NCBI GenBank assembly: GCA_000004695.1
Contig: CM000154.2
Span: 672,001-736,000, forward strand
Direction: 5' to 3'
DNA: 64,000 bases
DNA from: Dictyostelium discoideum
Taxonomy: Eukaryota
Position 1 is the first letter of the stretch; every line of letters starts with the position of its first letter. Made by a program: the position numbers and the translations under genes. The notes under the pieces were generated by a model. It made no database searches and had not been told where the DNA came from. It saw only the letters and a list, made by a program, of their open reading frames with translations. Shown piece after piece: positions 2,805 through 60,112 of this stretch.

Positions 2805-2861
<57 letters not shown>

Positions 2862-3137: not shown

Positions 3138-3247
<110 letters not shown>

Positions 3248-3762
3248 CACCTTATTTGAAAATTCAAATTAAAAAAAAGAAATAGCTTTACATTTTAAAA
3301 TTAAAATTCATAAATAAAACCATTATAAAAATATTGAAGTATATCAATAGGTTTAATTTAATTATTGTTTATTTTATAATAAAAAAAAAAAAAAAAATGA
3401 AAATTAATAAATAAAAATAATTAAAATTCTATATTAAAAATAAATATAAAAAAAATAAAAATAAAAAAGATTGTTTTTTAATTACCATTTCTTTTATAAA
3501 AAAATAAATAAAAAAATAATACCATAATAAAGATAATGTTTGCATCACCATTAGAGAAAATGGCAATTGTAATTCAATCTAAAAATAGTGATGGAATGAT
3601 TATCATTTTACTTTTAAATGATATTTATATTTATTTACCAATCCTTCAATTTTATCATTTGTTCAATTAACTTTAATTAAATTATATCCACCACAAATAT
3701 TATTATAAAATAAATAAATAAATAAATAAATAAATAAACAAAACATATGTATTTTAAAAAAT

Positions 3763-4881
3763 TTATTTGTCATCTTTATTTTTGTTAATTTCATCAGATG
3801 ATTCTTTATTTTGATCTTGTTGTTGTTGTTGTTGTTGCTGTTTTTCAAAATGGAAATTACCATGATAATCTAATCTTTTAATTACAAAATCATCAGTTTT
3901 TGGGAATGGTTCATTAATTGAATCATCATTTGATTGTTGTGGTTCAATTCCTTGTTGTTGTTGTTGTTGTGATAATGTAACACTATTATTTTCATTTGTT
4001 AAAATTGAAGGTATTGAAGAATCATTATCAAATTTATAACCAAATGAACTTGTACCAGAAATTTCACTAAAATGTTTTTTTGCAGAACCACGTTGTAATG
4101 GTTTTTGTTGTGATTCATGTGGTGCCCAACCGATTAAATAAATGATTTGAAAAGTTGCAGGAATTGAATTATTATCTTCATTACCATATAAATGTTTATA
4201 GATTGCAGATGCAGCTAAGAATGTATCTTTACTTGTATAGTTTCTTCTTTTTAAGATTGCATTATTTTCACCCATATTTTGTAAATCTCTCATTAATACA
4301 AACATATTATCATAATTTATTGTAATCTTTTCAGTGTCCACTGTTGGTAATGTGTATCTATTCTTTGATAAAATGTTACCAATATCACTAATCTTTGTAA
4401 ATGGTGATACATGTGGACTAAATCCACCCTCTCTTTCAATCTCTGCTAAATATAATGAATCTTTTAATTCCATCAATGTATCCTCACCAAATAACGATGC
4501 CAAAAACACACCATTTGGTTTTAATAATCTCTTTAATCCTCCAAAAACTCCTGGTAAATCATTTACCCAATGTAATGATAAATTACTTATAATTAAATCT
4601 AAACTTTGATCTTCAATACCTTCAATTTTATCTTCTAAACTATTAACTAATATTTTTGTAGGTTTAACTTTATTATTATTATTATCATCTTCATTCTCTT
4701 GAGAGACATTATTATCATCTCTATATAATAATTCTTTTGATGATTCAACCATATAATATTTATCAATTTTTGCACCTTTTTCTTGTATATATTTAAATAA
4801 TGCTCCATTTCTACTACCAAAATCTAAAACATTACCACATTTTATATCTTTAATATCCTTTTTTAATAAATTAATTAGAAA

Positions 4882-4917
<36 letters not shown>

Positions 4918-5136
4918 TACTAAAATTCTATCAGCTAATCTATCAGCAACTTCATTCATTAAATAATCATAATGTTTTGGGTCATCAACATTTGTAACTG
5001 TATTATTTTTTTGAATAGTTTTTACATTTGTATCAAAAATTGTCATTTTCGTATAATTTGAATATTGTCTTGTTTGATTCCAATCTTTGGAAAAACATTT
5101 TAAATTAAATCCTTTTCTAAATGTTGTTCTTAACAT
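3763..5136 (-). CDS. ndufaf5: SAM-dependent methyltransferase, mitochondrial complex I assembly factor NDUFAF5-like
   Basis: The translation shows VLDFGSRNGALF (SAM motif I), LIISNLSLHWVNDLP, PNGVFLASLFGEDTLMELKDSLYLAEIEREGGFSPHVSPF and IGWAPHESQQKPLQRGSA. Proposed exons are 5136..4921 and 4857..3763. The in-frame poly-K at 4858-4920 is an intron (GTATGT donor, AAG acceptor, 63 bp). There is an N-terminal mitochondrial presequence and a C-terminal polyQ tail. Confidence 0.8.
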
Positions 5137-5561
5137 TTATTTATTATTTTTATTATTATTGTTTTCGTTTTTTTAATTTTTTTAAAAAGGAAGGGGACAA
5201 TAGAAAAATAAAAAAAAAATGGTGAAAATATGAAAAATAAAAAAAATAAAAATTTTTTATATTACCACAAATGTTCAGTTTTTTTTTTTTTTTTTGGAAT
5301 GAAACCAAAACCAGTGATTAATTAAATAAAATTTTTATTAAACAAATATATATGTATATATATATTGAATATTTTTTCATGCCAATAAATCGGATTTATT
5401 TGGGTTGGAGGTTTTGTTTTTTAACTAATAACCCTGATTTTTTTTCAAAGTTTCTTGGTTTAATATCTTCAAGTATATGAAATTCTTTTTCCTCCTATTC
5501 ACAATATTTGTGTGTACCATATGGACTTTTTGGTGTAATAGAATTGGTTACTGAAGTTCAA

Positions 5562-5594
<33 letters not shown>

Positions 5595-5715
5595 TGAAAA
5601 TTAATAAATAAAAATAAAAATAAAAAGATTGTTTTTTTTTTTTTTTTTTTTATTATATTTTTTTTTTACCAATTCTTTTAAAAAAATAAATAAAAAAATA
5701 AAACTATTATAGATA

Positions 5716-6399
5716 ATGTATAAATTCTACTCAAAAATTTTACAAAACACAATTAAAAATAGTCATTTATTATTTTCTACAATAAGTTATTGCACTCGTT
5801 TTAGCACATCTCATGAATGGGTTAAAATGTTAAATAAAGGAAATATTGCAACTATTGGATTCTCAAGTTTTTCATCTGGATTTGTATTATTTTTTTTTTC
5901 AAGTTTAGAAATTTTTTTTTTTTTTTTTTTTTTAACTAATTTTATTTGTTTAAAAAAAAAAAGATAGGTAAATTTAATAATATAAAATTACCAACTGTTA
6001 ATTCTTATTGCAAATTAAATGAACCAATTGGATTAGTTGGATCACCAGATTCAACTAAAGAAGTGCTCCAATCTCTGGTAAATGTATTGAAGTAAATAAT
6101 GAATACTCAAAGAACCTAATTTAATTATTGAAAGTCCAGAAAGAAAGGGTATGTAATAAAAAAAGATAAAATTCATAAAAATAATAAATAATTTTTTACA
6201 AAGAGTTACTAAAATTATTTTTTTATATTTTTAAAAAGGATGGTTGGTAAAAATTGAAGTTGATAATCATGAAGATTTTGAAAATTTAATGACTAGAGAA
6301 GAGTATCAAAACTTTTTAAACAATAAAGTTGGTGGTGATATTAAGGATAGTGGTGAAAATATTGACAGTGGAATCCCAGGAACATTAATCTTAGGTTAA
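5716..6399 (+). CDS. Glycine cleavage system H-protein-like paralog (copy a), splicing unresolved, possible pseudogene
   Basis: Coding segments are 5716..5883 (…FCTRFSTSHEWVKMLNKGNIATIGFSS), 5964..6077 (IGKFNNIKLPTVNSYCKLNEPIGLVGSPDSTKEVLQSL), about 6103..6148 (ILKEPNLIIESPERKG) and 6239..6399 (WLVKIEVDNHEDFENLMTREEYQNF…*). The second and third segments are +1 out of phase, with no canonical GT-AG path joining them. Confidence 0.45.
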
Positions 6400-6625
6400 T
6401 AAAAAAAAAAAATTTGTAAACAATTCCACAAAAAAAAAAATTTGTAAACAATTCCACAAAAAAAAAAATCTAAAAAAAAAAAATCTTAAAAAAAAAAAAA
6501 ATTTCTTTAAAATAAAAAGAATCTCAAAAAAAAAGTAGTAAAAAAAACATTTTAAAAAAAAAAAATGTCTCACAAAAAAACATTTTCAAAAAAAAAAAAA
6601 AAGTTTGTTCACGTTTTCAAATTCA

Positions 6626-6657
<32 letters not shown>

Positions 6658-6741
6658 GTTTTTTTTTTTTTTTTTTTTTTATTTTTATTTTTATTTTTAT
6701 TTTTATTTTTTAACCTCTTATAGATATATACTTTTAAAAAA

Positions 6742-7195
6742 ATGTTAAAAACCTTAAGATTTGGAACAAGAGCATTCGGCCAAAATTTAAATATTGCCAA
6801 AAGAAACTTTTGTACTAGATACACAAACGATCATGAATGGGTCACTTCTCTTGGTTCTCAAAATTATAGATTGGGTATTACCGATTTTGCCCAAAAACAA
6901 GTAAGTATATTTCAAATATTTTCATAAATTTTTTTTTTTTTTTTTTTTAAGTTATTATAACACATTAATTAACCATTAAAAAAAAAAAAAAAAAAAATAG
7001 TTAGGTGATATTGTCTTTGTTGAAATACCACAAATTGGAGCAACATTATCTCAAGGTCAACCAATAACAGTAGTTGAATCAGTTAAAGCAGCTAGCGATA
7101 TCTATATTCCAATGGATGGTTCAATTACTACTGTAAACCAAGAATTAGAAAGTTCACCAGAGTTAGTAAATGAAGAACCAATGGGCGATGGTAAG

Positions 7196-7226
<31 letters not shown>

Positions 7227-7264
7227 TTATTTAGTTAAAATAATTTATATTAATTACAATTACA

Positions 7265-7357
<93 letters not shown>

Positions 7358-7484
7358 TTTTTTTTTTTTTTTTTTTTTTCAAACACAAAAAGGTTGGATT
7401 GTTGAGTATAAATCAAGCAAAACTGATCAATTCCAAAGTTTAATGAATAAAGCCCAATATGATGAATATATTAAAGAACATTAG
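6742..7484 (+). CDS. gcvH: Glycine cleavage system H protein (copy b, canonical lipoyl-lysine motif)
   Basis: Exons are 6742..6900, 7001..7190 and 7393..7484, with GTAAGT donors at 6901 and 7191 and AG acceptors. The protein reads …FCTRYTNDHEWVTSLGSQNYRLGITDFAQKQ|LGDIVFVEIPQIGATLSQGQPITVVESVKAASDIYIPMDGSITTVNQELESSPELVNEEPMGD|GWIVEYKSSKTDQFQSLMNKAQYDEYIKEH*. Intron 2 contains (ATT)n. Confidence 0.85.
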
Positions 7485-7686
7485 AAACATTGTTTTTTCC
7501 ACTAATTTTTAATTTAGGATAATGACCTAAAAAAAAAAAAAAAAAAGATCAAAAATAATATGATCAAAAATAAAAATAGAAAAAAGATATTTGTTAACAT
7601 ATTATATTTTAAATAGAAAAATCAAAAATGAATTGTTTTTGTTATTTTTTTATTTTTTTTTTATTTTTTTTATTTTATTATTATAT

Positions 7687-8002
7687 TTATTCATTGCTAA
7701 CAAAATGATTTTGATGGTAATCATCATCTTCTCCAAAAACACTGATTCTTTTAATTTCATTTACAATGTCTGGATATTCATTAAATCTTAATAAAATTCC
7801 TTTCAAATCTTCAATTTTTGGTGGAAATCCTAATCTATTCATTTCATTTGCAATTTTTAAACAAGTTTTAGCATAACCAACTTTTGCTGTTCCAAACATT
7901 AAAGTTCTGAAAAAAAAAAAAAAAAAAAAAAGAATAAAAAAAAAAGTATTAATATTTTATATTTATTTTATATTTATTATTATTATTGAAAGAACTATTT
8001 TA

Positions 8003-8035
<33 letters not shown>

Positions 8036-9762
8036 TTTTACTTACAAATAAATATAATAATCACCTTCAATACCATTATTTTTCATTTGGTGTAAAATTT
8101 CTAAAGCTTTTTCTAATCTTCTATGATCAACATACATTTTGATGATGATACCATAAGTGATTATATCTGGTTTAATATTATGTTTTGGATATTCTATATC
8201 GAAAGTTTCTCTAGCTCTATTTAAACGACCTGAATGTGTAAGAACTTTCAAGTATTCATCCATTGGATATTTTGTGAGAGGGATACCTCTTTCTTTCATT
8301 TCTTGTAAAACCTTTTCAGATTTTTCAATGTTTATTGATAGTCCAGTCTTGTTTAAATAGGTTTTCTTTGAGATGATTTGATTATTTGCATAGCCAAACA
8401 AAGCACATGTGAATACTCTTTGATCTGGTTTTTGTTTGAAATCATCACGATTGTATAACAATTCTCTATAGATTTTTTCAAAAACTTGAACCTCGCCTCT
8501 CTTTGCTGCTCCCTTCATTAGTGATGTGTAAGTGATGATATCAGGTTTGAATTTATGTAAAGCCATATCTTGTAATAGTTCAAATGACTTCAAATAGTAA
8601 TGATCATCAGAACGTTTTGCACATGCATATATCAATGAATTGAAGGTGACTTCGGTTGGTGTCAAATTTAAGTACTTGAATTCTTCGTAATATTGGAATG
8701 CCTTTTCCACAAGATCATTCTTTGCGCATGCATCAACCATCACTGATAAGGTAACTGAATCAGGTTGCATACCTTTAATTCTTGCCTCTGAAAATAATTG
8801 GATTGCCAATTTAGGTTTTTTATTTTTTACAAGACCATTTATCAATGATGTATAATTTATATGATCTGGTAATAAACCATAGGTGGTCTCCATTGAATTT
8901 AAAATTTGAAATGATTCATCCACTTTACCATTAGCCATGTGTACTATAAATAATGAATTGAAAATATGATTATTTGGTTTAATTCCATTTGCTAACATTT
9001 TTTCAAATACCATTAAACAATTATCAATATCTTTACAATTTGCTAAACCACTTAAAATACAAGAATAAAGTCTTAGATTTAATTCAACTGATTTTTCCTA
9101 AGAAAAAAAATAAAATTAAATATAAATATATTAATAAATTATTTTAAAAATCAATATATATATATTATTATTATTATTATTATTATTATACACCTTACTT
9201 CAAATAATTTCATAATTTCTAAAATTCTATTTGGATGATTTGATAAACCCATACGTTGAATAAATTTAATTGCTAATGGAATAGTGAAATTATTTTGTCT
9301 AAAGAAAATATAAGGATCAACCGATTCTGTTGAGAAATTATATAAATGTTGTTTACCTTTTCCAAGGATTGGTTGAACATGTGGTTCTAATAACATATTG
9401 TATTGAACTCTTTTTGATGGATCTGATAATGGTGAACTTGTATTTGGTAATAATTTAGCTCTTTCAATTAATTCTGGTCTAATATATTCATCTCTTGTTT
9501 TTTTTGAAATATTTAATTGTTCACTTTCTCCATATTTTTTCTTTTCTAAATGAAATTTATTTTTATCTTCCGTTATTATAACTTCATCTCTATAGATACT
9601 ATTAATTTTATTTATTGGTGGTTGTATTTCTTGTTGTTCTTGAGGATTTTTCCATGATGATGATGATGATGATGTTGTTGAAAAACTTCTATAAATCTTT
9701 ATGAATTTTCCTTTATTTTTATTTATATTATTTAAATTTAATAATTTATTAAAAACTGACAT
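7687..9762 (-). CDS. Pentatricopeptide-repeat (PPR) protein, probable mitochondrial
   Basis: Exons are 9762..9199, 9097..8046 and 7906..7687, with donors GTAAGG (9198) and GTAAGT (8045) and cttAG/ttcAG acceptors. Tandem PPR-like 35-aa repeats recur (…ITYTSLMKGAAKRGEVQVFEKIYREL…, …VTFNSLIYACAKRSD…). The N-terminus is Ser-rich. Confidence 0.75.
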
Positions 9763-9901
9763 TGTCTATTTTTTATAAAAAAATATATAATTGATTTTTT
9801 TTTTTTTTTCCAAAGTTTTCAAAACCAATAAAAGTTTATAATTTAAAAGAAAAAAAAAAAAAAGGGGGTATGTACAAGTATAATCACTTTTTATTTGTGA
9901 T

Positions 9902-9936
<35 letters not shown>

Positions 9937-10722
9937 CGCAACCAATAAAAGTTTTATAAAAAAAAAAAAAAAAAAAAAAATAAAATAATGTAAAATAAAA
10001 AAAACGAAAAAAAAAAAAAAAATAAAATAAAATAAATGAAAAAAACAAAAAACGAAACGAATTGTAAAAAAAAAAAAAAAAAAATAAAAATAAAAATAAA
10101 AAAAAAAAAAAAATAAATAATAGATATTTTTAAGTAAATTAATATTAATTGAATTTTTTTGGTACTAAAATTTATTATTTTCACAATAAACACAAATAAT
10201 CATACAATGATAACAGTTTTTAAGTAAATTAATATTAATATGAATTTTTATTTTTATTTTTATTTTAATATTGTAAAAACCATTCAAATTTGCCCACTTT
10301 TTCTAATTCCAAATATTTTTATATGGGAGCTCATATAAAATTAATATGTATAATTTTAAAATTTTGAAAAGTGCTCAAACTTGAATGGTTTTTACAATAT
10401 ATTTTTTTTTTCATTAAATTATTTTTATTTAATTTTTATTTTATTTTATATTTTATTTAATCCATTTGTTTCTATTTCATTTAAATATATATAAAATCTA
10501 GGATATCCCAAAATTGGGAAAATGAATTTTTTTTTATTTTTAATTTTTTTTTATGTGTGTGAATTAAAAAAAGTCAAATCATTTTTTTTTGATGACCAAA
10601 CAAAATTTTTCATTTTTTTTTAAAAAAAAAAAAAAAAAAAAATTGAATTTTTTTTATATTTTTTTTTTTTTATTTTTAATTTATTTATTTAACATCACCA
10701 AACAAATATTTACATACATAAA

Positions 10723-11036
<314 letters not shown>

Positions 11037-11409
11037 ATTTGTAAAAAACAATTAATAATAATAATAATAAAATAAGTGAAAATAAATATATAGAAAAGGA
11101 AATACAAGAAAAAGAAAAAGAAAAATAATGATTAAAATTTTAATAATGTAAAAAAAAAAAATAAAATAATAAAAAAAAAATAAACAACTCAACTCACTTT
11201 ACCTCATCGCAACAATCTCTTTTAAAACAAAAACCCCCCAAATCAGTAATAAAAAAAAAAATAATAAAATAAAATAAACTTTATTGATTTATTTTAAGAT
11301 TGCGTCTTAAAATAAATCAATGATGATTAAAAAAAAAAAAATTACATAATTCTATTTTTATTTTCAGTTTTTTATTTTTTTTTGTTATTTTTCTTTTTTT
11401 TTAATTTTT

Positions 11410-12092
11410 TTAAAATGGTAATTTATTTAAAGCAGAGGAATTTTTACCATCTTGCCATTCACTTCTGGTGATCCAAATTTCTCTTGTACTTTCCAAACAA
11501 CCTAAAATTGCACCACCTCTCCAACCAGCATGACGACAATCAACATCACTTCTAATGGAACTATTGGCAAAACCAATATAATTTTCAAGTGGCATTATAG
11601 TTGTAGAGGATGGTGTTGGGGTGGTTGTAGCAGAGTTTGTGGAATTTTGTAATTGTTGTTGTAATTGTTGTTGTTGTTGTTGTTGTTGTTGTAGTTGTTG
11701 TTGAAATTGTAATTGTTGAGCTTGATATTGTTGTTCCAATTGTTTAAATATACAAACTCTTAGTACATCTTGAATACCAGGTGCTAAGGCACCACCACCA
11801 ACCAAAAGAATATTTGATAAGTATTTCTTTTTATTTATATCACTTCTCTCCAATTGTGATACACTCTTTAAAATTGCAATATCCAATGGAATATCAATAT
11901 AATTATCTTCACAATTTGATGAGGATTCTATTTTTAATTTCTTTGTTGGTGATGATGTTGTTGAAGTTGAAGTTGATGGTACCGTTGAATTTGAATTAGA
12001 AATTGATGGTACTGTTGAGTTTGAATTTAAAGTTGATGGTACTGTTGAATTTGAATTTAAAGTTGATGTTACAATTGTAACATTATTAAAAC

Positions 12093-12156
<64 letters not shown>

Positions 12157-12221
12157 ACTATTAATATTACTATTACTACCACTATTATTATTATTATTAT
12201 TATTATTACTACTACTACTAC

Positions 12222-12252
<31 letters not shown>

Positions 12253-13203
12253 AATATTATTAATTATATTATTATTAATAATATTATTATTATTACTACC
12301 ATCTTTATTATCTCTACTTGTATTATTTTGAGCAAAGCTAAGTATATGACTATGATCATCGAATGGATCTTCATGATCATATGATGATAGGTAATGATTA
12401 TAATAATGTTTTTGATCTTCAACATATAAATTACTTTCACTAGTATTTGCCAATGATCTTGATTTAATTAGATAATTTACAGAACTTCCACCAAATTGTG
12501 ATAAAATATTTGGATAAAATAAAGACATACCAACAACTTGATAAACTTCATCTGCATTAAAATGATAAATATTCATATGTTTATCATGTTTAATATCTTT
12601 AACTTTAAATGTACCAACTCTTTGTTTTTGAAAATCATTCTATGATTATTATTAAAAAAAAAAAAAAAAAAAAAAAAGTTAATAAATATTTTAAATCTTT
12701 TGTTTATACTCTATATAATAATAATAATAATAATAGGATAACCTACATAATAATAATCTAAATTTTCAATTTTAATATTATCAAAAACATTTAAATAAAA
12801 TGGAGAGAAATCGACTAATTCATAAATTGAAGATTTGAAAGGAAAATAATATTTATGTATTTGTTTTGCAACCATTTGTCTTGTTAATGTATCAGAATCA
12901 CTCTTATCCATACCAGTTAAAAGATATTCCAATAGTTTTGTTAATTGTTCACCACCATAGCCAAGTGTTAATCTAGTATTTGGTAAAAGGTAACCTTCAT
13001 CAACACATGCAATCGATATCTTTTGATGACCTAAATCAATAACACATGATTGTGTTGCCATTGATACTCCAAACGATGAACAAATTGATTCTTGAAAGAA
13101 TAATACTGATGTAAATTGTAATTCCTTTAATAATAATGTTGTAATTTGTTTTAATGATTTTCTATCAATATTATCTGTAACAACATAAACACATCCATAG
13201 CTC

Positions 13204-13249
<46 letters not shown>

Positions 13250-14250
13250 AAAAAATTAATATTTTAGAATTATTATTAATTTTAAAACAAATTATTAAAT
13301 AAATAAATAGTTACACTTAAATCAGAGGATGGTATATTTAAATATCTTTGAATTGCATATTTCCACATTTGAGTTATATCATCAAACATTGATTGAACTG
13401 AATGATAGATTCCAGTATTAAAAGTTGACATGGTGATTGGTTGATAGGCAAACCATTTATCTTTGTCTCTGCTTACTGCGATTGCATCATCACCAATACA
13501 ATAATCGATTTCGTTGTAGTTTAATGGTTGTGGGACATAGGGTGGTGGAGTAGTTGAAACGTTTGTAAGTGATGATAATGAAGAGGTTTTCTTTTTCTTC
13601 TTTTTAATGATTTCAAAAGTTGTGGAATTATTCTCATTGTAGAGTGTTGGTTTTTGTCTAACTTTAATATAATCAACTGGTGGTAATAATTTAGTAGTCT
13701 CTTTAACTGATTGTTCAACCTCTTCTAATAATTTTTTTGGTATATGTATTTTGGTTTGTGTTTGTATATTTATTGGGGGTGGTGGTTGTTCAATTTTTAT
13801 ATTTGAGGTTATATTTGTTTTTGAATCAGTTATAGGTTTATCTATATCCATTGATTCAGTTGGTTTAATTTCTACTTCTTCTGTTGTTGATGTTGATGAT
13901 GTTGATGATGTTGGTTTAACTTGTTCATCAGTTGTTATTGTTGTTGCCATTGGCAATGTTGATTTAACATCTTCTGTGGTAGTGCCAACTGCTTCAGAAG
14001 GGGTCACTGTATTTTCAACATCTATTTTCATAATATCATCATTATTTTCATTTGATTTATTATTTATTATAGTTGACTCTACTGGTGATACTATTGTTGG
14101 TGTTTCAGTGGTTGTTATTGTTGGAGTGGAGATTTTTTCTTTTTTCTTTCTTGCTATGTAATTTGGAATTGTTTTTGGAACTGATTCTGATGCCAATCCA
14201 ATCTTTAACGAATGTGATCCATGGTGAATTACAATAACTTTACTTTCCAT
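11410..14250 (-). CDS. Actin-related protein 8 (Arp8, INO80 complex)
   Basis: Exons are 14250..13315, 13202..12747 and 12639..11410. Motifs: VIVIHHGSHSLKIGLASE (N-terminal), …YLNIPSSDLS|SYGCVYVVTDNIDRKSLKQ…CVIDLGHQKISIACVDEGY…TRLTLGYGGEQ, …MNIYHFNADEVYQVVGMSLFYP…ILLVGGGALAPGIQDVL…DCRHAGWRGGAILGCLESTREIWITRSEW. It aligns collinearly with human ACTR8, including the long insert regions; this copy has poly-Asn/Ser/Thr inserts. Confidence 0.8.
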
Positions 14251-14464
14251 TATATTATATTTGTTTAATACAATGAAAAAAAAAAAAAAAAAGAAAATGA
14301 AAAAAAAAAAAAAAAAAAAAAAATGAAAAAAAAAAAAAAAAATAATAAAAAAAAAAAAGAATTAAAAATTAAAATGGAAAAAAAAATAAAAAAAAATTAA
14401 ATATTATGTTTTAAATTAATTATTATTTTTTTAACTTTATTTAATCATTTTTTTATTTATCTAT

Positions 14465-14499
<35 letters not shown>

Positions 14500-14712
14500 A
14501 CACTATTCTGCTTTTTTTTTTTTTTTTTTAATTTTTTTATATTTTTTTTTTTTTTATATTTTTTTTTTTTTTTTAATTTTAATTTTTTTAATTAAAAAAA
14601 AAGTTTTAAAAACAAATTCACTATTTATTTTTATTTGTATAGTATTTCTATTTTATTTTTAAAATAATTTATTTTTATCCTTAAAATTGTATTATAAAAT
14701 TAGTATAATATA

Positions 14713-15987
<1,275 letters not shown>

Positions 15988-16004
15988 AACAAAAAAAAAA
16001 CAAA

Positions 16005-16045
<41 letters not shown>

Positions 16046-16285
16046 GATTAATTAACAAACAATAAAACTTATAAATTTGTAAAAAAATAGATTGTTTCTT
16101 TTTTTTTTTTTTTAATGACTAAAATTTATTCATTATTATCGGATGTTGTTTTTTTTTTTTGACACTGCTATTGTAGTATTATATGGGTAAATTTTTACAA
16201 AATGCCTTTTGATTTGATTTAATTTGATTAAAATAAAATGAAAAAAAGACCTAGTTTTATTTGATATTTAGAGTTGTTATCGAGC

Positions 16286-17217
16286 TTATTGTGGTGGTGG
16301 GTATACCTTTGATTGTGCTTTGACCTTTTTATCATATTCTTCCTTGTTGGTCCTAAAATAGAAAAAAAAAAAAAAAAAAAAAAAAAAATAAAATAAAATA
16401 AAATAAAATAAAATAAAAGGTGTTAACTTTTTATACAATTATTGATACATTTAAATGTTTATAATGATAACTTACAAAAATAAGTGGATTGGAAGTTGTT
16501 GAGCAGGACTTTTTGGATTTGGGTTATCTAATAAATCTTGAATACCTAATAAAACCTATTATTATTTTTGAGTAAAGTGTAAATAATTATATCAATCATT
16601 CTAAATAAAATTCTCTATAAATCTCATATCACTATAATCATAACCCCACACAAACAAACACACACACACACAAAAATATAAAATAAATAAACACACAAAT
16701 AATATATAATGATAGATTGATAAATTACTGTTTTAATTGTTACGGATGGTTTCCAATCTGCTTCTTCATTTAAAATACTTAAACAAACAGTACCTGATGG
16801 GTAAACATTTGGGTGGAAAAAATCTTTTGGGAATCTACATTTAGGTGGTTTACTTGGATAATCTTCAGTAAATTCCATAATAAGTGGATATACACCACCT
16901 TCCCAATTTGTCTATAGTTATTTATAATGTTGGTTTGGTTAGTTTGTTGCCCCTCTATTTTTATTATTTTTTTTATATTTTTTTTCTTTTAAATTTGTTG
17001 TACCAATGGTTTTTGGTAATGATATTGATAATTTATATATAAAAAAAAAAAAAGAAAGACCACCTACTTTTGTTTTACCAGGAATACCACAATTCCAAAC
17101 ATATAAATTTAATGATCCATCTGTGTTTGTTGATGGTCTTGCAAAGAAACCATATGGATGATCTCTTCTCCAATTCTTTCTTTCTTCTGATAATCTAGCT
17201 GATGATATTCCTGCCAT
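16286..17217 (-). CDS. ubc9: SUMO-conjugating enzyme UBC9 (E2)
   Basis: The four exons are 17217..17068, 16911..16729, 16555..16476 and 16352..16286, with donors GTAGGT, GTAATT and GTAAGT. The product reads [50 protein letters not shown]|[61 protein letters not shown]|[26 protein letters not shown]|[22 protein letters not shown]. It is collinear with human UBE2I and has the HPN and catalytic Cys motifs. Confidence 0.85.
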
Positions 17218-17364
17218 ATATAATATATATATATTGAGTATTAAAATTTCAATTGAATGTAATACCTTTTATAATTTGAAATAAATAAAAACTAAATACA
17301 ATTTTTTAAAAAAAAAAAAAAAAAAAAAAAGTTAACTGAGAGTTTTTTTTTTTATTTTTTGTTT

Positions 17365-17402
<38 letters not shown>

Positions 17403-17692
17403 TTTTTTTTTTTTAAAATTTAATTTAAAAATAAATATTTTTTTTTTTTTATTTCTAGAAGGAATACCCGAATCCTTATTTGAAATATTAAAATAAAAAA
17501 ATAAATAAAAATTAATATAAGCAAAATAAAAAAATAAAAAAATAAAAAAATAAAAAAAAGCCACAAGTCTCAAAGTTTTCGATTATTTGTTACCAGAAAA
17601 TAAAAAATATAAAACTAATATAAAAATACAAAAATGAAATAATATATTATATTATTGATATATATACATTATAATATTATATTTAAGTAAAC

Positions 17693-17723
<31 letters not shown>

Positions 17724-17906
17724 AATTATTAAATAAAAGGCCTCAAGTCATTCGATTATTTGTTACCAGAAGATAAAAAAAAATATAAAACAAATAAAAT
17801 AATATATTTATAAGTGTGAATAAACTATGTTTATTGATTTGATTTACTATTTTATTATTAAATAGTTAATGAATAAAAAGTAAATGGATTTTTTTTTTTT
17901 TTTTTT

Positions 17907-20602
17907 TTAAAGTTTTTCATTATATTCTTCAAGAGTTGGTAATTTTGGATTTAAACCTTTTCTCTTTCTAATTGATGAAGCTACTTCAGTTGATCTTTTA
18001 TCTTGACCAACGATACCAATTGAACTCCAATGATCAAAAACACATTGAGGGAAAGCTTGACCAGCAGTACTTGAACGTAAATCAGCAGTGAGACCAAATG
18101 ATTCCATTACAGGAAGATAAGCTTTGATATTGAATAATGGAGTACCAATACGACGTTCTTCACCAATGACAACACCTCTTCTACGATTGAGTACAGAGTA
18201 GATACCACTAATACCACTTTCAGGAGTACTAATATCAACCAAATACATTGGTTCCAAAAGTGTTGGTTGAGCTGATAGTTGGGAGGCATACATTACACGA
18301 CGAGTTGTTGGAATAAATTGACCACTACCTCTATGAATTGCATCGGCATGAAGCATTACATCATAAACGTTGAAACGAATCGATCTCATTTTCTCACCAC
18401 ATAATACACCTTCATTTGAGATCCATTGGAATGCTGAAACCATAGAGTCTTTAATTTCATGAAGATATTGAACACCTTTGGTTTTGTTAACTAAAACATT
18501 TGGACCCTTATATTCTGGACCAAATGACCAAATGTTAACTGCATCATTCTTATCCCAAGAATGTTTATCATAGAGATAATTGGCACGACTTTTAACATCT
18601 TGATTAAAAGCCACCAAACCATTATCAATATCATCAGTTAGGTCTGACGATAATGGTTCAGATTTCATGTAGATACGATTGTGTTTATTTGGTGATTTTG
18701 CAAGACACATGATTTTTGATTCCTCTGAAACAGATTCACAAAATGATACCACTGGATCAGAGGTAATAATTTCAATGCCTGCATGATCTTCTTCAAGGTC
18801 TTTAAGACAAATTTCCAAGTGAAGTTCACCTGCACCAGCAACAATATGTTCACCAGATGTTTCGGTGATACATAAAACACATGGATCAGCTTTTGCTAAA
18901 ATTTTAAGACCTTCAATAAGTTTTGGTAGTTCAGATGGATTCTTTGGTTGTACAGCCACCCGGACTACGGGAGAAACCGAGAATTTCATAACTCTTATAT
19001 TATGAGCCGTTTCTTCCGTAGAAATCGTACCAGATTTAACCAAGAACTGGTCTACACCAACCAAACCAATGATATTACCACATGGACAATCATCGAGAAG
19101 TTCAATCTTTCTACCCATCATAAGTACGGTACGTTGAATTGATTTAAGGTATAGATCATCCTTTTTGCCTGGTACATAATCTGGTCCCATGATACGAACC
19201 TTTTGACCAGTACGGATGGTACCAGAGAAAACACGACCAAATGCATAGAAACGACCTTTATCCGAGGTTGGAATCATTTTAGATACATACATCATCAATG
19301 GACCATTTGGATCACAATTAGCAATAGCCAATGCACATTTATCATCCATTGGACCTTCATAAAGATGACTAACACGATATTTCTGTGCTTCCAATGGTGA
19401 TGGTAAATGAGAGACAACCATTGAAAGAATGGCATCTGAAGCTGGTAAGAACTTTCTCATGATTGATTTGATCAAATTCTTACCCTTCAATTCAGCATCT
19501 TCAGGTGAGAGAGAAATGTTGAGTACTTTCAACATTGAATCGATTCTATCTTGATCTTCATCGATTACTGCACGAGTCAATTTATAAATTGGATCCAAAA
19601 TAAATTGACAAAATGCTCTTTGTAATGGTTTTGCTTCACCACTACCATCATCAGATGAAGGTACATTTGAAGTTTTCCATTTCTTTGATTCTTGATCAAA
19701 GTAATTATCACCCCATAAACGTGACATTAATTTCTCTTCAGAAACACCAAATTTTGAAGCGTAAAGTTTTGCGAATTTACCAATTGTAAAACCCCAACCA
19801 TGTAGGCCAGAACCAAATGCAATTGTACCTTTCTCTGGTGAGAGGTTAATATCACCCATCATACCATTACCAAATTCATTGTTTTCACCAGTACAACCAA
19901 ATGATCCAATTACTACATTTACAGATTCAATGGCTCTTGTAAATGATAAATAGGCATCTTCACTGTTTAATTGGAGTTCCAAAAGAAAACGATCAACCTT
20001 GTTTACAAATAAAACTGGTTTAATACGTTCAGCCATTGCTTGACGTAAAACAGTTTCAGTTTGTACACAAACACCCTCAACACAATCGATAACTACCAAT
20101 GCACCATCGGTAACACGAAGTGCTGCTGTTACTTCAGAACTAAAATCAACATGACCTGGTGAATCAATAAGATTGATCAAGAATTCGTGTGAGCTACAAC
20201 CAGTTGGTAATTTCTCATCTTTTGGCATTTCAAAGTGAAGTGAAACAGATGATGACTTTATGGTAATACCACGTAATTGTTCATCTGGACGACATGACAT
20301 ATATCCTGCATTACCAGATACCTTATCTGCAATAATACCAGCTCTTTGAATTAATGAATCAGTAAGAGTAGTTTTACCATGATCAACACTTTTTTTTTTT
20401 TTATTATTTTAAAAAATAATAAAAATAATAATAATAATAATAATAATAGAAAATAAAAAAAAATATTAATAATTAATAAAATTTTATTAAATAATAATTA
20501 TAAAATAAATTATAATACTTACTGAGCAATAACAGACATATTTCTGATATTTTCACGACGATCCATAATTGAACGAATTTGATCTATTGTAAAATTGACC
20601 AT
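17907..20602 (-). CDS. efbA: Translation elongation factor 2 (EF-2)
   Basis: Exon 1 is 20602..20523 ([32 protein letters not shown] donor). Exon 2 is 20388..17907 ([47 protein letters not shown]…[20 protein letters not shown]…). The diphthamide-region and GTPase motifs are present. Confidence 0.9.
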
Positions 20603-37301: not shown

Positions 37302-37832
37302 ATGATAAGTAATTTTTTAAAATCAAATAATATTAAAAACAATTCTCCCTTTAGATCATTTTGTACTCGTTATAGTGAATCTCACGAATGGATTAAATTT
37401 AACCATAGAAATAAAACTTGTACTTTAGGAATAACTAAATATGCTTCGGATCAATTAAAATCAATTGTGTAAGTACCAAAATTAAAAAATTAAAAAAAAA
37501 AAAAAATTATAAACTAATAATTATAAATTTTTTTTTTTTTAAAAAAAAGAAATATTAATTTACCAGATTTAAATTCAACGATTACAAGAAAACAACCATT
37601 TGGAAATATTGAAAGTACAAAAACTGTTGCTGATCTTTTTTCAGATGTCGATGGAAAAGCAGTTTTATTGAACTCAGATGTCATTGTAGATCCAACAATA
37701 GTTAGCCATAGTCCAGAGGACAAAGGGTGGTTAATTAAAATGGAAAGTAATGACTTTGAATCATTTAATAAAATGATGACAAAAAGTGAATATGGTCAAT
37801 TCTTAAAAGATATTAATAAATCAAATGTTTAA
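37302..37832 (+). CDS. Glycine cleavage H-protein-like paralog (copy c)
   Basis: Exons are 37302..37468 and 37550..37832, with a GTAAGT donor at 37469 and an aaAG acceptor. The product is MISNFLKSNNIKNNSPFRSFCTRYSESHEWIKFNHRNKTCTLGITKYASDQLKSI|VNINLPDLNSTITRKQPFGNIESTKTVADLFSDVDGKAVLLNSDVIVDPTIVSHSPEDKGWLIKMESNDFESFNKMMTKSEYGQFLKDINKSNV*. A Lys is retained at the lipoylation position. Confidence 0.8.
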
Positions 37833-39020: not shown

Positions 39021-39516
39021 TTATTTATAATCAGTATTTTCACAATAGTGAGCATACTCTTCTTCAGTCATTAAATGATTGGTTTGAAATGGTTCATTAA
39101 TTTTTAATTCAATTGTCCATGAATCTTGGTCATTATTAAAAAATAATGAATTTGATTTTAATGGTAATTTTGGTTTAATCTTTGTTGTTGTTGTTGTTGT
39201 TTTCGTTGAAATTGTTGTAGTTTGTTGATTATTAAATTTATTATTAACTTTTGAAACTATACCAGATAATGGTGATTTAAATTGAATATTTTCTTCTTCT
39301 TTTGTCCATATAGATAGAAATGGTTGATTTAACCTTATTTTATCATTTATTTTTGGTAATTTAATTTTTAAGATTTTATTAAATTCATTATTTACAATAT
39401 CTGATACATAATTAGTAATACCAATTGTTGCAAAATCTTTATTTTCTGAAATTTTAATCCATTGGTGATTTGGTGAATATTTTAACTTTTTATTTCTATT
39501 ATTATTATTATTATTA

Positions 39517-39548
<32 letters not shown>

Positions 39549-39650
39549 GTTTTTATTATTAATAAAATTTCTAATAAAGAATAAATTATTAAAGTTATTC
39601 CTAAATATTATATTATTATTTATTATTTTATTTGATATTATTTTGTTCAT
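39021..39650 (-). CDS. Glycine cleavage H-protein-like paralog (copy d, poly-Asn/Thr inserts)
   Basis: Single exon. Motifs …KYSPNHQWIKISENKDFATIGITNYVSDIVNNEFNKILKIKLPKINDKIRLNQPFLSIWTKEEENIQFKSPLSGIVSKVNNKF…DQDSWTIELKINEPFQTNHLMTEEEYAHYCEN are collinear with the H-protein. Confidence 0.65.
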
Positions 39651-39960: not shown

Positions 39961-40302
39961 TTAAATTTTAATTATTTTATTTTTACAATAATTATCATAT
40001 TCATTTTTATTCATTAAACTATTAAAATCATTTATATTTGAAAATTTTATTTTACATAACCAACCCTTTGACATTGGTGATGAATTTATATAATTTGGAT
40101 AATCGAGTACATCTTGATTAATTGAAATCAATTTACAATTTCTTATTGGTGAATTTAAAAGAATTTGGTCAGAAATTGTATCTAAAGAAATGGTTAATGG
40201 TTCATCATCAACTTGATTTTCATCTTTTATTATTGGAAATTTGATATATAAAACATCATCAAATTTATTAATTGGGCCATTCTCTGTTAATCCTAATGTA
40301 CC

Positions 40303-40343
<41 letters not shown>

Positions 40344-40452
40344 TATTATTATTATTAATTGAAATCCATAAATGATTTTTTGAATATCTTGTACAAAAAA
40401 ATTTATTTGAAAGACTTTTTCTTAAATTATTTGTTGTTTTGAACAAAAACAT
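39961..40452 (-). CDS. Glycine cleavage H-protein-like paralog (copy e, lipoyl-lysine position not conserved)
   Basis: Single exon: MFLFKTTNNLRKSLSNKFFCTRYSKNHLWISINN…IIIGTLGLTENGPINKFDDVLYIKFPIIKDENQVDDEPLTISLDTISDQILLNSPIRNCKLISINQDVLDYPNYINSSPMSKGWLCKIKFSNINDFNSLMNKNEYDNYC…. There is no Lys at the E-S-V-K position. Confidence 0.6.
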
Positions 40453-40675
40453 TTTTTTTAATTGCTCGCTCTAAAAAATGAAAAATAAAAATTAAAAAAA
40501 AAAAAAAAATATTTTCATTTTTTTCATTTTACATTTTTTAAAAAATGTTTTAATTTTATTTATTTTTATATTAATTTTCTATATCAAATAGATCAGTCAA
40601 AAATACTCAAAATGATATAAAAAAAAAATCAATTCAACCATCTATTTTTTTTCAAATTTTTATAATGCCAAAACT

Positions 40676-40686
40676 GACATCGAACC
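40676..40686 (-). promoter_or_regulatory. External B box (exB) downstream of the tRNA gene
   Basis: The minus strand reads GGTTCGATGTC, a B-box consensus match, about 30 bp 3' of the tRNA. This is the arrangement typical of Dictyostelium tRNA genes. Confidence 0.55.
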
Positions 40687-40715
40687 AGCGACTTTAGGCT
40701 CGCAGATTGAAAAAC

Positions 40716-40805
40716 TGCCCGAGCTCAGAATCGAACTGAGGACCCTCTGTTATCGCTTTAGTACATAGTACAAGACAGATATAATAACCACTATACGACA
40801 CGGGC
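40716..40805 (-). tRNA. Intron-containing tRNA gene, anticodon most likely UGU (Thr); 73-nt mature body plus a 17-nt intron
   Basis: The minus strand reads GCCCGTGTCGTATAGTGGTTATTATATCTGTCTTGTA[CTATGTACTAAAGCGAT]AACAGAGGGTCCTCAGTTCGATTCTGAGCTCGGGCA. Features: D-loop AGTGGTTA, anticodon stem TCTGT/ACAGA, loop CTTGTAA with the intron after position 37, T-arm CTCAG-TTCGATT-CTGAG, a 7-bp acceptor stem with one U•U, and discriminator A. It is immediately followed by GTTTTT, a Pol III terminator. Confidence 0.7.
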
Positions 40806-41193
40806 TCACATGTATTTTTTGTATTAAATAGCAGTTACCATATTCAGAATTTACCATTATTCCATTCAAAAATAATATTCAGAATGTGCCCAAGGAGAAA
40901 AAACTAATAATTGCGTTATCCAATTCAAAAAAAGAAAAATATTCAGAATGCGAGATAAAGGTGGAATTGGTTAAGTTTTAGTGAAAAAGTATCTAATATT
41001 CCCTTTTGACGTAAAGGTCCTCTCTGTACATAATAAACCAAAGAAGGATATTACAGTTTTGTAATGAATAGCACTTGGAAAAACCATCAAAATGTTAAAC
41101 CATTAAAAGATTGCACAATAGCCATCCAATATAAAAACATATTAAGAATTTAACCACCAACAAATAATAAAAAAAACTCTTTAAAGATTTTTT

Positions 41194-41405
41194 ATGGCTT
41201 TTTTATTTATTTCTATTTCTATTTCTATTTCTATTTCTATTTCTATTTCTATTTCTATTTCTATTTCTATTTCTATTTCTATTTCTATTTCTATTTCTAT
41301 TTCTATTTCTATTTCTATTTCTATTTCTATTTCTATTTCATTTCTATTTCTATTCTATTCTATTTTATTTTATTTTATTTTATTTTATTTTATTTTATTT
41401 TATTT
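41194..41405. repeat. (ATTTCT)n microsatellite of about 24 units, followed by (ATTTT)n
   Basis: Direct reading. Confidence 0.95.
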
Positions 41406-42242
41406 ATTAAATTTGTGAAAATATCATCACTATCGCCATCATTAATTACTTTAATGATATTTTTATATTTTCGATAAAATTGGTCATCATATAATTGAAT
41501 TGCATCGTTGGGTAAATAAAGCGATGTTAAAGAGGGAGGATGTAATGAAAGATCCAATGAAAAATTTGCAGAGAGTAATATTAGAGTTTCTAAATTTTGA
41601 GGTAATAAATGAGATTCCAATAAAGGAATTTCTTCTAATCCATTTGAAACATAGATTTGTAAAATCTTTAGATTAACTAAATCTGTTAAAAAATCACTTG
41701 CAGAATAATATTGTGGTAACCAGTGAAATGAAAATGATGTTAAATTCTTCAAGTTTGATAATGATCTAATATTCTCTATTTGACTATTATACTGTGACAT
41801 ACTAAAAATAATAGTCTCACAAGATTGTGGTATTGAATCTTGAATAATTGCACGAGTATAACCACAAATTTCTAATGATTTCAAATTCTTTAAATGTGAT
41901 AAACACATAATACCACCAGCACCAGCACCAGCACCAGCACCAGTACCAGTACCAGTACCAGTACCAGCTTCACCATCTTCTGTTGATGATGGAATTAAAT
42001 CACGATCATATAAATTTAAATTTAAATCTGTTATAGAATTTGGTAATAAAGGTAATGTGAAATTTTCCATTCCACCATCCATATTATTTGCTTTGAAATT
42101 TGGAAATGGGTATTTTATATTCAACTTCTTCATTGTTGAATGTAATGTTAATAATGCTTGATCATTTTCAATTAGTTCTCTAGAAATTGATAATGATTCA
42201 ATTGAATTTGGAAATTCTTTAAAATTTTGATTACTATTACTT

Positions 42243-56594: not shown

Positions 56595-59500
56595 AATAGA
56601 GCAACTGGATTTTTAAGAAAACAAATGTCAGGTACTGAAGATCAAACTCAAGAGAATCATACATTATATTTATTTTTAGCAAATCAAAATTCAATTACAT
56701 CATCATTGAAATTAGAATTACATAATATTGATAAGTTTGATGATATTTTACCAATGATTGTTAATCAATGTGCAGATTATTTGGAGCAAGAAAAGTATAT
56801 TTTACCAAGTGAAAAACATTGTTTACTTAGAGTTATGCCATTTGTATTGTTTTTAATCGATGAGAATGACTCTAAACATAATATCAACAAGAACAAGAAT
56901 TTGAATATCTCACGTTATGCAAAGATTTTCAAAAAGAATCCAGTCGTACCATTGTATGGTGATATGCAAATCACATTGGAATCATTGGTTAAGAGATCAC
57001 CACATTTCGATGAGAAGGCATGGGGTACCTCAACATTGGATAGTAAATCAGCGTTGGATTACGAGATCATTCATGTTTTGGACCAAACACGTTCCCTCTA
57101 CAACGAGTATATGGCACGTTTTGCAAATATGGTCAACGAGATTAGAGCGGCCAAAGCTCGTGGTCCAAAGGAACCATTGCCATTGGCAGAGTCTGATATT
57201 CAAGCAATCACATTGATGGGTTTGAGGATTCTCTCTGATTGGACCTCAAGAGTACTTCAACAATCGGCTTGGAAATATTCTAAACCAAACAATGATCCAA
57301 CCATTTCAGCAACCTTTGATTATGAACGTGTCGTTAAATTCAATTATACCAAAGAGGAGAGAACCGCTTTGGTTCAATTGATCGCCATGATCAAATCATT
57401 GGCTTCATTGATGATGAAGAGTGAAACATTACTTCAACCAATACTTCGTAAGACCATTCATCAAGAGTTGCAAGAGTTTGTTCAAATCAATCTCAAAGAG
57501 ACCATTAAATCCTTTGTAAAGAATAATCCAAAGAAGAAGGATAACATCAAATTGGAGATGTCACAATTGAAGAATATCTCTGTCGATTGGTTCAGTGGTT
57601 TCGAACCTGCCGAAGCTGTACCAAACAAAAAGAGTAAAGAAGTCGAAGAGAAAGTTCAAATTCCTGCTCGTGCCGTACCACCATCACCAACCCAATTGGA
57701 ATTGATTCTCACTTTGGTCTCATCATTAATGGATAAAAAGAAGGATTTCTCCTCTGATCAATATCGTGACTTTGAAGCATTTAGTAGCAAGGCCTTCTTT
57801 TATCGTTACCTTTTATCATTATCCTCATCAATCATTTCAATCACCGATTTAGCCGATCTTTGGTATCGTGAATTCTATTTAGAATTGAACAATCGTGTAC
57901 AATTTCCAATTGAAACTTCGCTTCCATGGATTCTTACCGATCATATCTTGGAATCAGATGATCCATCATTAATTGAACATCTCTTCTATCCTTTGGGTCT
58001 CTACAATGATACTGCTCAACGTGCTCTCCTAAGTTTAAACCAACGTTTTCTCTACGATGAAATCGAAGCAGAACTCAATCTTTGTTTCGATCAATTACTT
58101 TACAAACTCTCTGGTAAGGTTTATACTCATTTCAAGACTCAAGCAAGTTCTATCCTCTTGGATAAACCATATAAAACTCAATTGGAATTGGCTCATTTCA
58201 ATGGTAAATTACATACACCAAAATCACGTTTCGACGTTTTGCTACGTCAAAAACATATTACCCTCCTTGGTCGTTCCATTGATCTTTGTGGTCTATTGGC
58301 TCAAAGACAAAACAATACCATTCGTCAAAATTTAGATTATGCCATCAGTAGATTCGAAGCTTGCGATTTAACATCGATCGTTGAATTGGAGACCCAAATC
58401 GCCAATATCAAACTCACTCACAAACTCTTATCAGAATACTTTGATATAGATCCATTCGAATCAATCTTTAATGAAATCAATGAGTCCACTTCTTTGGTCT
58501 CTTATCATGGTCGTATTGTACTTCATATTATCTTTGAATTGGTGGCCGATTTCGCTCCAAACTATACCTTCAATTCAATCACTCAACGTTTTATAAAGGC
58601 TCCATACACTTTCACCGAAGAATTGAAACGTGATGCACTTCCAAAAACTAATCCTGTCTTTTTGTTTGGTAATAAATATTTGAATGCTGCCTATGCAAAC
58701 TCGATCGAACTCTACAAGAATTTCATTGGTGTACCACATATTCAATCAATCCTTAGAATCGTTGGTAAAAAGAATCTTCCTTTGATCGTTGCTGAGGTAT
58801 TACGTAATATTGAAATCAAGATCACCAATGTTCTCTCACCATACGTTAGTGAATTACTTCAAGGTATGCCTGCATCGACTAAATTACCAATCTATGATTA
58901 TGGTACTGAAGGTGGCTATGGTTATTTCCAACTTAAATTGAAAGACATTTACATCTATCCAGATTTACGTCCAGAGGTACTTCAAACATTCAGAGAATTG
59001 GGTAACAGTTTGGTATTTATGAATCTTTTGGATCAAGTTATCACTCAAACCGATAGTTATAACTTTGCCAAAGCTGCACCTTTCCTTGGTATCACTCCAG
59101 AGACTTGGAAAGATTTAGAACCATCCACTGAGGATCCAACCCTTCAATCACCATTGTACTCTCAATTACAAAAGTTGGCTCAACTCTTGGAGAGTAGACC
59201 AGAGGTTGCCAAATCTTCACAATCACTCAATGATATGGTTGCAAACGCATGGCGTGCCGATAAATTCTATCGTCCATCCGAACAAAACTTTTCTCTCTTT
59301 AAGAGTGTCCTCCAACGTTTCTCTTCAATCCTTAATATTGTTCGTCATGATTGGTCTGGTGCTCCTCCAGATAATGGTGTCATTTGCGTTGATTCCTCAA
59401 CAGAGTTTTATCGTTTATGGAGTGCCCTTCAATTTGTAATCTGTTGGCCACTCTCAAATGAAAATGATAAATCTTTCCATGAATTGTTTGGTGATGGTTT

Positions 59501-59799
59501 AATGTGGGCCGGTTGTTCATTGATCCATTTCCTTGGTCAACAATATCGTTTCGAATTATTTGATTTCTGTTATCACATTTTAAATGTAGAAGAGGCTGCT
59601 GCTGTTCGTTCAGATAAACCTGCCTTAAAGAATTTCTTTAAGAATGCTCAAATCATCAAAGATATCAATAATCAAATCTTTAGTATACTCAATACATATT
59701 GTCCACCACCACCACCTTCTAATATGATCCTTTCACCACCTGCTACTGAACAAGCTGAACAATTTATAGTTACAACCACTGTTGAAGAACAATCAATTC

Positions 59800-59831
<32 letters not shown>

Positions 59832-60112
59832 CTTCAACAATCAACTTCAAATTCTGGAAGTAGTTTATCACTTTCTGCTGCTGGTGCACCACCTCCACCA
59901 CCACCACCATCAACAAATGGTTTACCACCTCCACCACCAATGGCTGTAAGTAAATCAAAAATAAAATTTATAATAAAAAAAAAAAAAAAAAAAAAATTAA
60001 TAATACTAACATGCTCATAATTTAATAGGAATATGAAATGAGTTCAAGTATTGATGATTTTGCTCCACCCCCACCACCACCATTTGGAATGCCACCACCC
60101 CCACCAATGTAA
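55908..60112 (+). CDS. pirA: CYFIP / PIR121 (Sra1) subunit of the SCAR/WAVE complex
   Basis: Exons are 55908..56488, 56600..59945 and 60029..60112, with donors GTAAAA and GTAAGT. Motifs: [47 protein letters not shown]|[28 protein letters not shown], …[13 protein letters not shown]…. It is collinear with human CYFIP1. The C-terminus carries polyQ and poly-Pro and ends …[27 protein letters not shown], the last 28 aa coming from exon 3. Confidence 0.8.

Follow-up and report, generated by a model that had tools for sequence, protein, structure and literature searches.

The DNA upstream of ThrUGU-6, a tRNA-Thr(UGU) gene of Dictyostelium discoideum, is most likely the fossil of DGLT-A-type (Ty3/gypsy) LTR integrations, not promoter DNA. 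The gene lies in a stretch of 64,000 nucleotides of assembly GCA_000004695.1 (contig CM000154.2, positions 672,001 to 736,000), which was analysed as a whole and is referred to here as the window, all positions being counted from its first letter; the block upstream of the gene occupies 40806–41190. Most of this block is homologous to repeat units of D. citrinum; the block begins at an LTR-type distance from the tRNA gene, contains a unit with LTR-type termini and is missing, with the tRNA gene itself, from the corresponding site of two sister species. From these features we infer a history of integration followed by recombination, and a probable second, more distal LTR unit. No function has been demonstrated for the block.

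The initial annotation, which was made from the letters alone, had read a minus-strand tRNA-Thr(UGU) with a 17-nt intron after position 37, a CTTGTAA anticodon loop, a U6•U67 mismatch, a TTTTT terminator and an external B box (exB) about 30 bp downstream, and each of these points holds. Rfam family RF00005 scores 47.7 bits (gathering 29) from 40805 to 40716 on the minus strand, and ARAGORN with its intron option agrees, reporting tRNA-Thr(tgt) at c[40716,40805] and placing the intron, 17 nt long (ctatgtactaaagcgat), at 37/38; in its default mode the program makes no tRNA call at 40716–40805. The anticodon loop is CUUGUAA, and two non-canonical pairs, U6.U67 and U13.U22, are seen in the outputs of both programs. 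When the cloverleaf is enforced on the folded pre-tRNA, positions 32–37 pair with the intron and the 3' junction falls in a 5-nt single-stranded stretch. Such a single-stranded 3' splice junction, together with pairing between anticodon loop and intron, is the usual eukaryotic splicing substrate. The intron of the ThrUGU-6 pre-tRNA is of canonical form and would pair with the anticodon and be excised through the action of the tRNA splicing endonuclease and ligase. The unconstrained minimum free energy fold is not a cloverleaf (z -1.2) and is uninformative. The coordinates of the gene and of the features around it are collected in the table.

Features at the ThrUGU-6 locus, in window positions
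Feature	Position	Strand	Evidence and remarks
tRNA-Thr(UGU), ThrUGU-6	40716–40805	(-)	Rfam; ARAGORN intron mode; S2 Table of PMC5391098
Exon 1 / intron (17 nt) / exon 2 of ThrUGU-6	40805–40769 / 40768–40752 / 40751–40716		
T5 run, RNA polymerase III terminator	40710–40714	(-)	1 nt past discriminator base; read from sequence
External B box (exB), GGTTCGATGTC	40676–40686	(-)	29 nt beyond tRNA 3' end; pattern scan
Spacer, 14 nt, TCACATGTATTTTT	40806–40819	.	From tRNA +1 to LTR; last 4 nt, TTTT, are the left putative TSD copy
Unit 1, solo LTR-like, 236 bp	40820–41055	+	5' TGTATTAAATAGCAG ... GGATATTACA 3'; homology to D. citrinum L007 units
Internal expansion of unit 1	40840–40950	+	Three ATATTCAGAATK copies from local 35 + 64 bp duplication
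GTTT, right copy of putative unit 1 TSD	41056–41059	.	Between unit 1 and unit 2
Unit 2, putative degenerate or truncated LTR	41060–41187	+	Starts TGTAATGAATAGCAC, contains ATATTAAGAATTTAAC; 3' boundary uncertain (41176–41188)

The gene is already known and is not a discovery, since its window coordinates, with the offset of 672000, coincide with those given for ThrUGU-6 in the AX4 genome (chr5:712716-712805, 90 bp; S2 Table, PMC5391098), the length being the same; the window accordingly corresponds to AX4 chromosome 5, 672001–736000. Each of the six ThrUGU genes that have been annotated, the other five being at chr2:5288579, chr2:6680526, chr4:3710357, chr4:3717164 and chr5:3336512, has a length of 90 bp (S2 Table, PMC5391098), and the published primer for the family crosses the intron, with one mismatch at ThrUGU-6, so that the intron is a trait of the family; the intron variant GUACUAAAGCGAU distinguishes ThrUGU-6. 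De novo integrations of TRE5-A(bsr) have been recorded at this gene (546/11/1 mapped contigs; S2 Table, PMC5391098), which indicates, if indirectly, that a Pol III complex assembles on it in vivo. External B boxes have been described for the tRNA genes of social amoebae (PMC5911963), and the pattern GGTTCGANNYC finds two matches in the 64 kb where 0.14 would be expected. The second of these, GGTTCGAAACC at 57597–57607 (-), runs antisense inside a long ORF (56625–60020), has no tRNA-like context and is probably a chance match. With its cloverleaf, its intron at 37/38, its published listing and its oligo(T) run, ThrUGU-6 is a nuclear tRNA gene of Pol III type 2 that is predicted from sequence to be functional; it depends on its internal A and B boxes and on exB, and the Pol III machinery evidently continues to recognise it.

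The initial annotation had also described the upstream block as lacking the usual homopolymer runs of A and T. This is true in part: the block holds four A/T runs of at least 6 nt, and runs of 5 nt or longer account for 13.5% of its length. Its GC content is 27%, against 6–18% in its immediate flanks, in a window which has a GC content of 24.7% overall, encodes poly-Asn proteins and averages 30% in coding windows; on a crude non-coding mask the block is not an extreme compositional outlier. What does stand out is the repeated motif ATATTCAGAATK, for which three copies had been claimed and three are found (40840, 40875 and 40939), compared with 0.17 expected, a count reached in 0 of 100 shuffles. 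Stops interrupt all six frames of the block, the longest open stretch being 49 codons; Rfam returns no family for it even at E <= 10, no DUSE or class I RNA motif is apparent on inspection, and the 64-kb window holds no further copy. Searched for in collections of metagenomes and of prokaryote genomes, the tRNA exon and the core of the unit gave 0 matches, and k-mers of the block brought up nothing relevant in literature full text. A 20.5-kb locus (L001) in another D. discoideum assembly, GCA_054883475.1, is 99.7% identical to the window and is identical to it across the tRNA gene and the block.

The block begins TGT exactly 14 nt from the tRNA +1 position, a placement which pointed to an LTR, and homologues in D. 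citrinum give this reading its substance. At locus L007 of that species (JBTAPK010000048.1), three units of about 140 bp are found at two places. By blastn, block positions 137–268 match L007 2433–2568 at 72% identity over 136 bp (E 4e-15) and also L007 12291–12385 at 76% (E 2e-13). When the profile is made solely from the D. citrinum units, nhmmer recovers window 40942–41055 (E 1.9e-12), the match ending exactly at ACA, and Smith–Waterman scores of unit 1 against the D. citrinum units stand at z 16.3 and 14.2 relative to shuffles. The suggestion of a retroelement remnant made in the initial annotation finds support in that the repeat family, to which most of the block belongs, stands in D. 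citrinum as well upstream of a tRNA gene, one of another kind; the type of element has to be revised, however, as the remnant is of an LTR type at -14 and not a TRE5 at -50.

The layout in D. citrinum parallels that in the window. Unit a of L007 (2412–2550) starts 14 nt upstream of a tRNA-Ser(GCU) gene and is flanked by a perfect 4-bp TSD, TCTT/TCTT; unit b follows directly after the TCTT duplication of unit a and is more degenerate; and unit c has no tRNA gene alongside but directly adjoins another DGLT-A, at its right LTR. In the window as in L007, then, units are stacked in tandem and the distal one is the more degenerate. All family units of L007 and the window run from 5' (T/C)(G/A)TAWTRAATAGCAG to GGTTATTACA 3', and no PBS follows any of them at either locus. 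The copies found in the loci compared, those of the window and of L007, are all solo units, and no full-length element combining these LTRs with a PBS and a PPT was met there. Locus L007 itself appears to be rearranged: its positions 2300–18550 hold a segmental duplication of about 9.5 kb (88–100% identity) bracketed by two inverted tRNA-Ser(GCU) genes, and the duplication junction carries a DGLT-A of a second LTR type, with an inverted fragment of that LTR at about 12437, which suggests LTR-mediated rearrangement.

Unit 1 itself ends TGTA...TACA. In the alignment with the D. citrinum units (A2), its first 20 nt (window 40820–40839) sit on the 5' end of the unit, and roughly 99 extra bases, consisting of the duplicated segments with ATATTCAGAATK, have no counterpart in the ~140-bp D. 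citrinum units; the last ATATTCAGAATK copy aligns with their CGTTTAGAAGG. Less the internal duplication, unit 1 is about 137 bp long. Its flanks, TTTT and GTTT, match at 3/4 positions and lie inside a T-run, and as the putative TSD of the window is both imperfect and so placed, it carries little weight.

Unit 2 is probably an older, degenerate or truncated LTR copy, a reading of the sequence which draws on a terminus of 15–17 nt, one motif and its position. At its 5' terminus 12/15 positions equal the family terminus, and it follows directly after the putative TSD, as unit b follows unit a in L007; motif D3 is common to unit 2 and unit 1. Its overall similarity is weak, with z of about 2.5–2.6 against unit 1 and no significant score against the D. 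citrinum units. An arrangement of two tandem units had been rejected when judged on internal similarity alone (z 2.5), and it was revived solely through the parallel layout in D. citrinum: it is the mirroring of units a and b that leads us to regard unit 2 as a probable older copy.

A link between this family and DGLT-A is given by a bona fide DGLT-A element in D. citrinum. The DGLT-A at locus L003 (JBTAPK010000055.1, 9449–13681) has 306-bp LTRs that are 100% identical to one another, a TSD of AATC/AATC and, 2 bp after the left LTR, the PBS TGGCGACAT (TGGCGACATAGCAG); it lies 14 nt upstream of a tRNA-Arg(UCU) gene, so that the same 14-nt spacing is seen in the window, at unit a of L007 and at the L003 element. 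It looks like a very recent insertion. In D. discoideum, DGLT-A is considered inactive. The L003 element is about 4.2 kb long, and its 1120-aa ORF seems to be without the Gag-like N-terminal part. The family termini, 5' TGTAWTRAATAGCAG ... GGTTATTACA 3', compare with 5' TGTGATGAATCAC ... GTGGTTATTACA 3' in the L003 LTR: the family ends are TGTA(A/T)T...ATTACA, the last 10 nt at the 3' end, GGTTATTACA, are identical to those of the L003 LTR, and at the 5' end TGTAATGAAT stands against TGTGATGAAT.

The published accounts of DGLT-A fit the position of unit 1. DGLT-A inserts about 15 bp upstream of tRNA genes, within 13–18(33) bp (PMC5006619, PMC6101501), and the figure of about 50 bp given for both TRE5 and DGLT-A in the initial annotation is accordingly right for TRE5 (~48 bp) and wrong for DGLT-A (~15 bp; PMC5006619, PMC6101501). 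The D. discoideum element has a 265-bp LTR and is often found as solo LTRs, formerly named 'H3R' (PMC5006619, PMC6101501); insertions stacked upstream of earlier ones have been described (Table 1, footnote c, PMC5006619), and the RNase H and integrase of DGLT-A contact the TFIIIC subunit Tfc4 (PMC6101501). Unit 1 resembles the H3R solo LTRs in its Ty3/gypsy-type position at -14, its TG...CA ends, its putative 4-bp TSD pattern and its L003-matching termini, and is unlike them in its interior, which is dissimilar to the three LTR types compared, and in its length of 236 bp versus the published 265 bp.

These three LTR types came from DGLT-A loci reached by protein search, for which Dd_DGLT-A RNase H and integrase fragments were rebuilt from the OCR text of a supplement and padded with X to a query of 770 aa, which matched P0121, P0122, P0123 and P0131. 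The interior of unit 1 gives no blastn match and z <= 0.4 against the DGLT-A LTRs of L002, L003 and L007, three lineages which are themselves only ~58–70% identical in protein to published DGLT-A. The LTRs of L002 (D. discoideum) and L003 (D. citrinum) do resemble each other (z 6.6), and the element closest to the published Dd_DGLT-A fragments, at 80–86%, is that of L008 in D. dimigraforme, which is without a clean LTR. Identification of the block as a DGLT-A solo LTR by direct similarity was for this reason rejected, the L002 and L003 LTRs being unlike the block and both falling outside the published DGLT-A lineage. The L002 locus (GCA_054859355.1, JBTAPG010000003.1, 10001–12115) holds a DGLT-A-like ORF, P0122, that is ~58–69% identical to the published Dd_DGLT-A fragments, with an LTR of about 310 bp related to that of D. 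citrinum L003, and strains of D. discoideum may carry more than a single lineage of DGLT-A.

Unit 1 may be either a known H3R solo LTR or a member of an orphan family of the kind seen in Dp_DGLT-A.4 and Dp_DGLT-A.5 of D. purpureum, which are represented almost only by solo LTRs, have no ORF and were assigned by their position 10–34 bp upstream of tRNA genes (PMC5006619, Table 1). The likeness lies in their being LTR families known nearly only as solo LTRs near tRNA genes; they differ in belonging to another species and are likened to unit 1 by description, D. discoideum having no reported orphan family of this kind. That unit 1 stands for an unreported orphan DGLT-A-type LTR family common to D. 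discoideum and D. citrinum, non-autonomous or extinct and lacking a coding partner, is a more tentative reading, and a rather unlikely one. A wider parallel is offered by the sigma elements of Ty3 in Saccharomyces cerevisiae, which are likewise solo LTRs, left by a Pol III-tethered Ty3/gypsy element where Pol III initiates (~15 bp upstream of the mature ends of tRNAs), with stacked insertions; their sequence is unrelated, and Ty3 depends on contacts between integrase and TFIIIB and makes 5-bp duplications, as against the contacts of DGLT-A RNase H and integrase with Tfc4 (PMC6101501).

The sequence of events that would account for the block can be outlined on this basis. A DGLT-A-type element, tethered to the Pol III complex, would have inserted 14 bp upstream of the tRNA gene with a 4-bp target duplication; the targeting mechanism is here that of the model published for DGLT-A, with its contacts of RNase H and integrase to the TFIIIC subunit Tfc4 (PMC6101501). 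Recombination between its LTRs would later have reduced it to a solo LTR, unit 1, in which a local triplication could then have given rise to the three ATATTCAGAATK copies. Unit 1 would have landed between the tRNA gene and the remnant of an older LTR, unit 2, leaving the older copy distal. Both units would go back to insertions into the region of Pol III initiation.

The surroundings of the locus are conserved in D. citrinum and D. dimigraforme, in both of which synteny is kept across nicastrin, UBR, FNIP, the gcvH paralogues, GST and tubulin, and the syntenic locus of both species contains no tRNA gene, exB or block. Of the three species, D. discoideum is therefore the only one with the tRNA gene and the LTR relics at this locus. 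The spacer between FNIP and gcvH measures 185 bp in D. citrinum versus 937 bp in the window; aligning the two spacers globally to locate the borders of the insertion was uninformative in this AT-rich DNA. Loss of C-terminal coding sequence from the FNIP gene was considered as the origin of the block and rejected, as the FNIP C-termini align end to end with D. citrinum and the block is thus not decayed coding sequence.

Some further features of this neighbourhood may be recorded. Directly 3' of the FNIP-repeat gene, positions 41199–41400 are taken up by a long microsatellite, in which about 22 units of (TTTCTA)n give way to (ATTCT)/(ATTTT)n and which makes a spurious 74-aa 'ISISIS' ORF (41194–41418); in D. 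citrinum its place is taken by no more than a short AAAAT-like tract. Between 36063 and 40452 of the window, three glycine-cleavage H-like paralogues (~37302–37832 +, 39021–39650 - and 39961–40452 -) are interleaved with a GST gene in a cluster which adjoins alpha-tubulin and is conserved in the sister species. In D. dimigraforme (L005/L006, JBTAPM010000048.1), the gcvH–gcvH–GST–tubulin cluster is duplicated in inverted orientation where a contig of 4.68 Mb ends, and no FNIP gene is called at the position expected from synteny.

Considering that TRE5 elements of D. discoideum also insert upstream of tRNA genes, that about a quarter of these genes carry TRE5-A and that ThrUGU-6 is itself a recorded TRE5-A(bsr) target, the block could be read as a 5'-truncated remnant of such a non-LTR element, in plus-strand orientation, so that its 5' end would point to the tRNA gene and its oligo(A) tail would lie at 41163–41176. 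The 5' end of TRE5-A always faces the tRNA 5' end (PMC5391098), and an A-rich run, AATAATAAAAAAAA, does lie at the distal end of the block. TRE5-A/B/C, however, lie 40–54 bp upstream, are 5'-truncated, carry an oligo(A) tail and lack LTR-type ends, whereas the element here starts at -14, which is where its homologues too have a well-marked 5' terminus, and shows the TG...CA ends and, putatively, the 4-bp TSD pattern of LTR elements; its D. citrinum homologues are discrete units of about 140 bp that end in GGTTATTACA with no A-tail, and no TSD of variable length was found. On this anatomy of position and end structure, on which TRE5 was rejected, a TRE5 origin is very improbable. We give equally little credit to the idea that the block is an unannotated product, whether a small RNA gene, a degenerate exon or a pseudogene. 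This would explain its exon-like GC content, which is near the mean of the coding windows, but the six-frame stops and the empty Rfam search speak against it, as do the C-terminus that the neighbouring FNIP gene shares with D. citrinum and the fact that no gene is called at the block in the other D. discoideum assembly.

A duplication of unique host DNA, which would have brought the block together with the tRNA gene and exB from another ThrUGU locus and would make the D. citrinum similarity that of a conserved host element, deserves somewhat more attention and is still improbable. The tRNA gene, exB and block are all missing from the syntenic spacer of the two sister species and could have arrived together, and tRNA gene numbers vary widely among dictyostelids (418 in D. 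discoideum). Conserved host DNA of a ThrUGU locus does not sit well, though, with homologous units that adjoin a gene for another isoacceptor, Ser-GCU, with a unit c that has no tRNA gene and abuts a DGLT-A LTR, or with the perfect 4-bp TSD of unit a and the LTR-like termini common to the units and DGLT-A. Transfer of the tRNA gene along with solo LTRs that already stood beside it is possible and is compatible with the favoured explanation, the integration of DGLT-A-type elements.

[quoted passage not shown] As the tRNA gene and the relics are missing from the syntenic site of two sister species, the locus provides a dated example of the gain or loss of a tRNA gene. The repeat family is kept between D. 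discoideum and D. citrinum and yet is internally unlike the DGLT-A LTRs sampled, and the LTR repertoire at the tRNA genes of these related species may therefore exceed the single DGLT-A family reported for AX4. If the orphan family is real, the lineage-specific presence of LTRs, tRNA gene and exB would hint that tRNA genes can be copied together with their LTR relics, and such joint copying, if it occurs, could be one source of the many tRNA genes that D. discoideum has.
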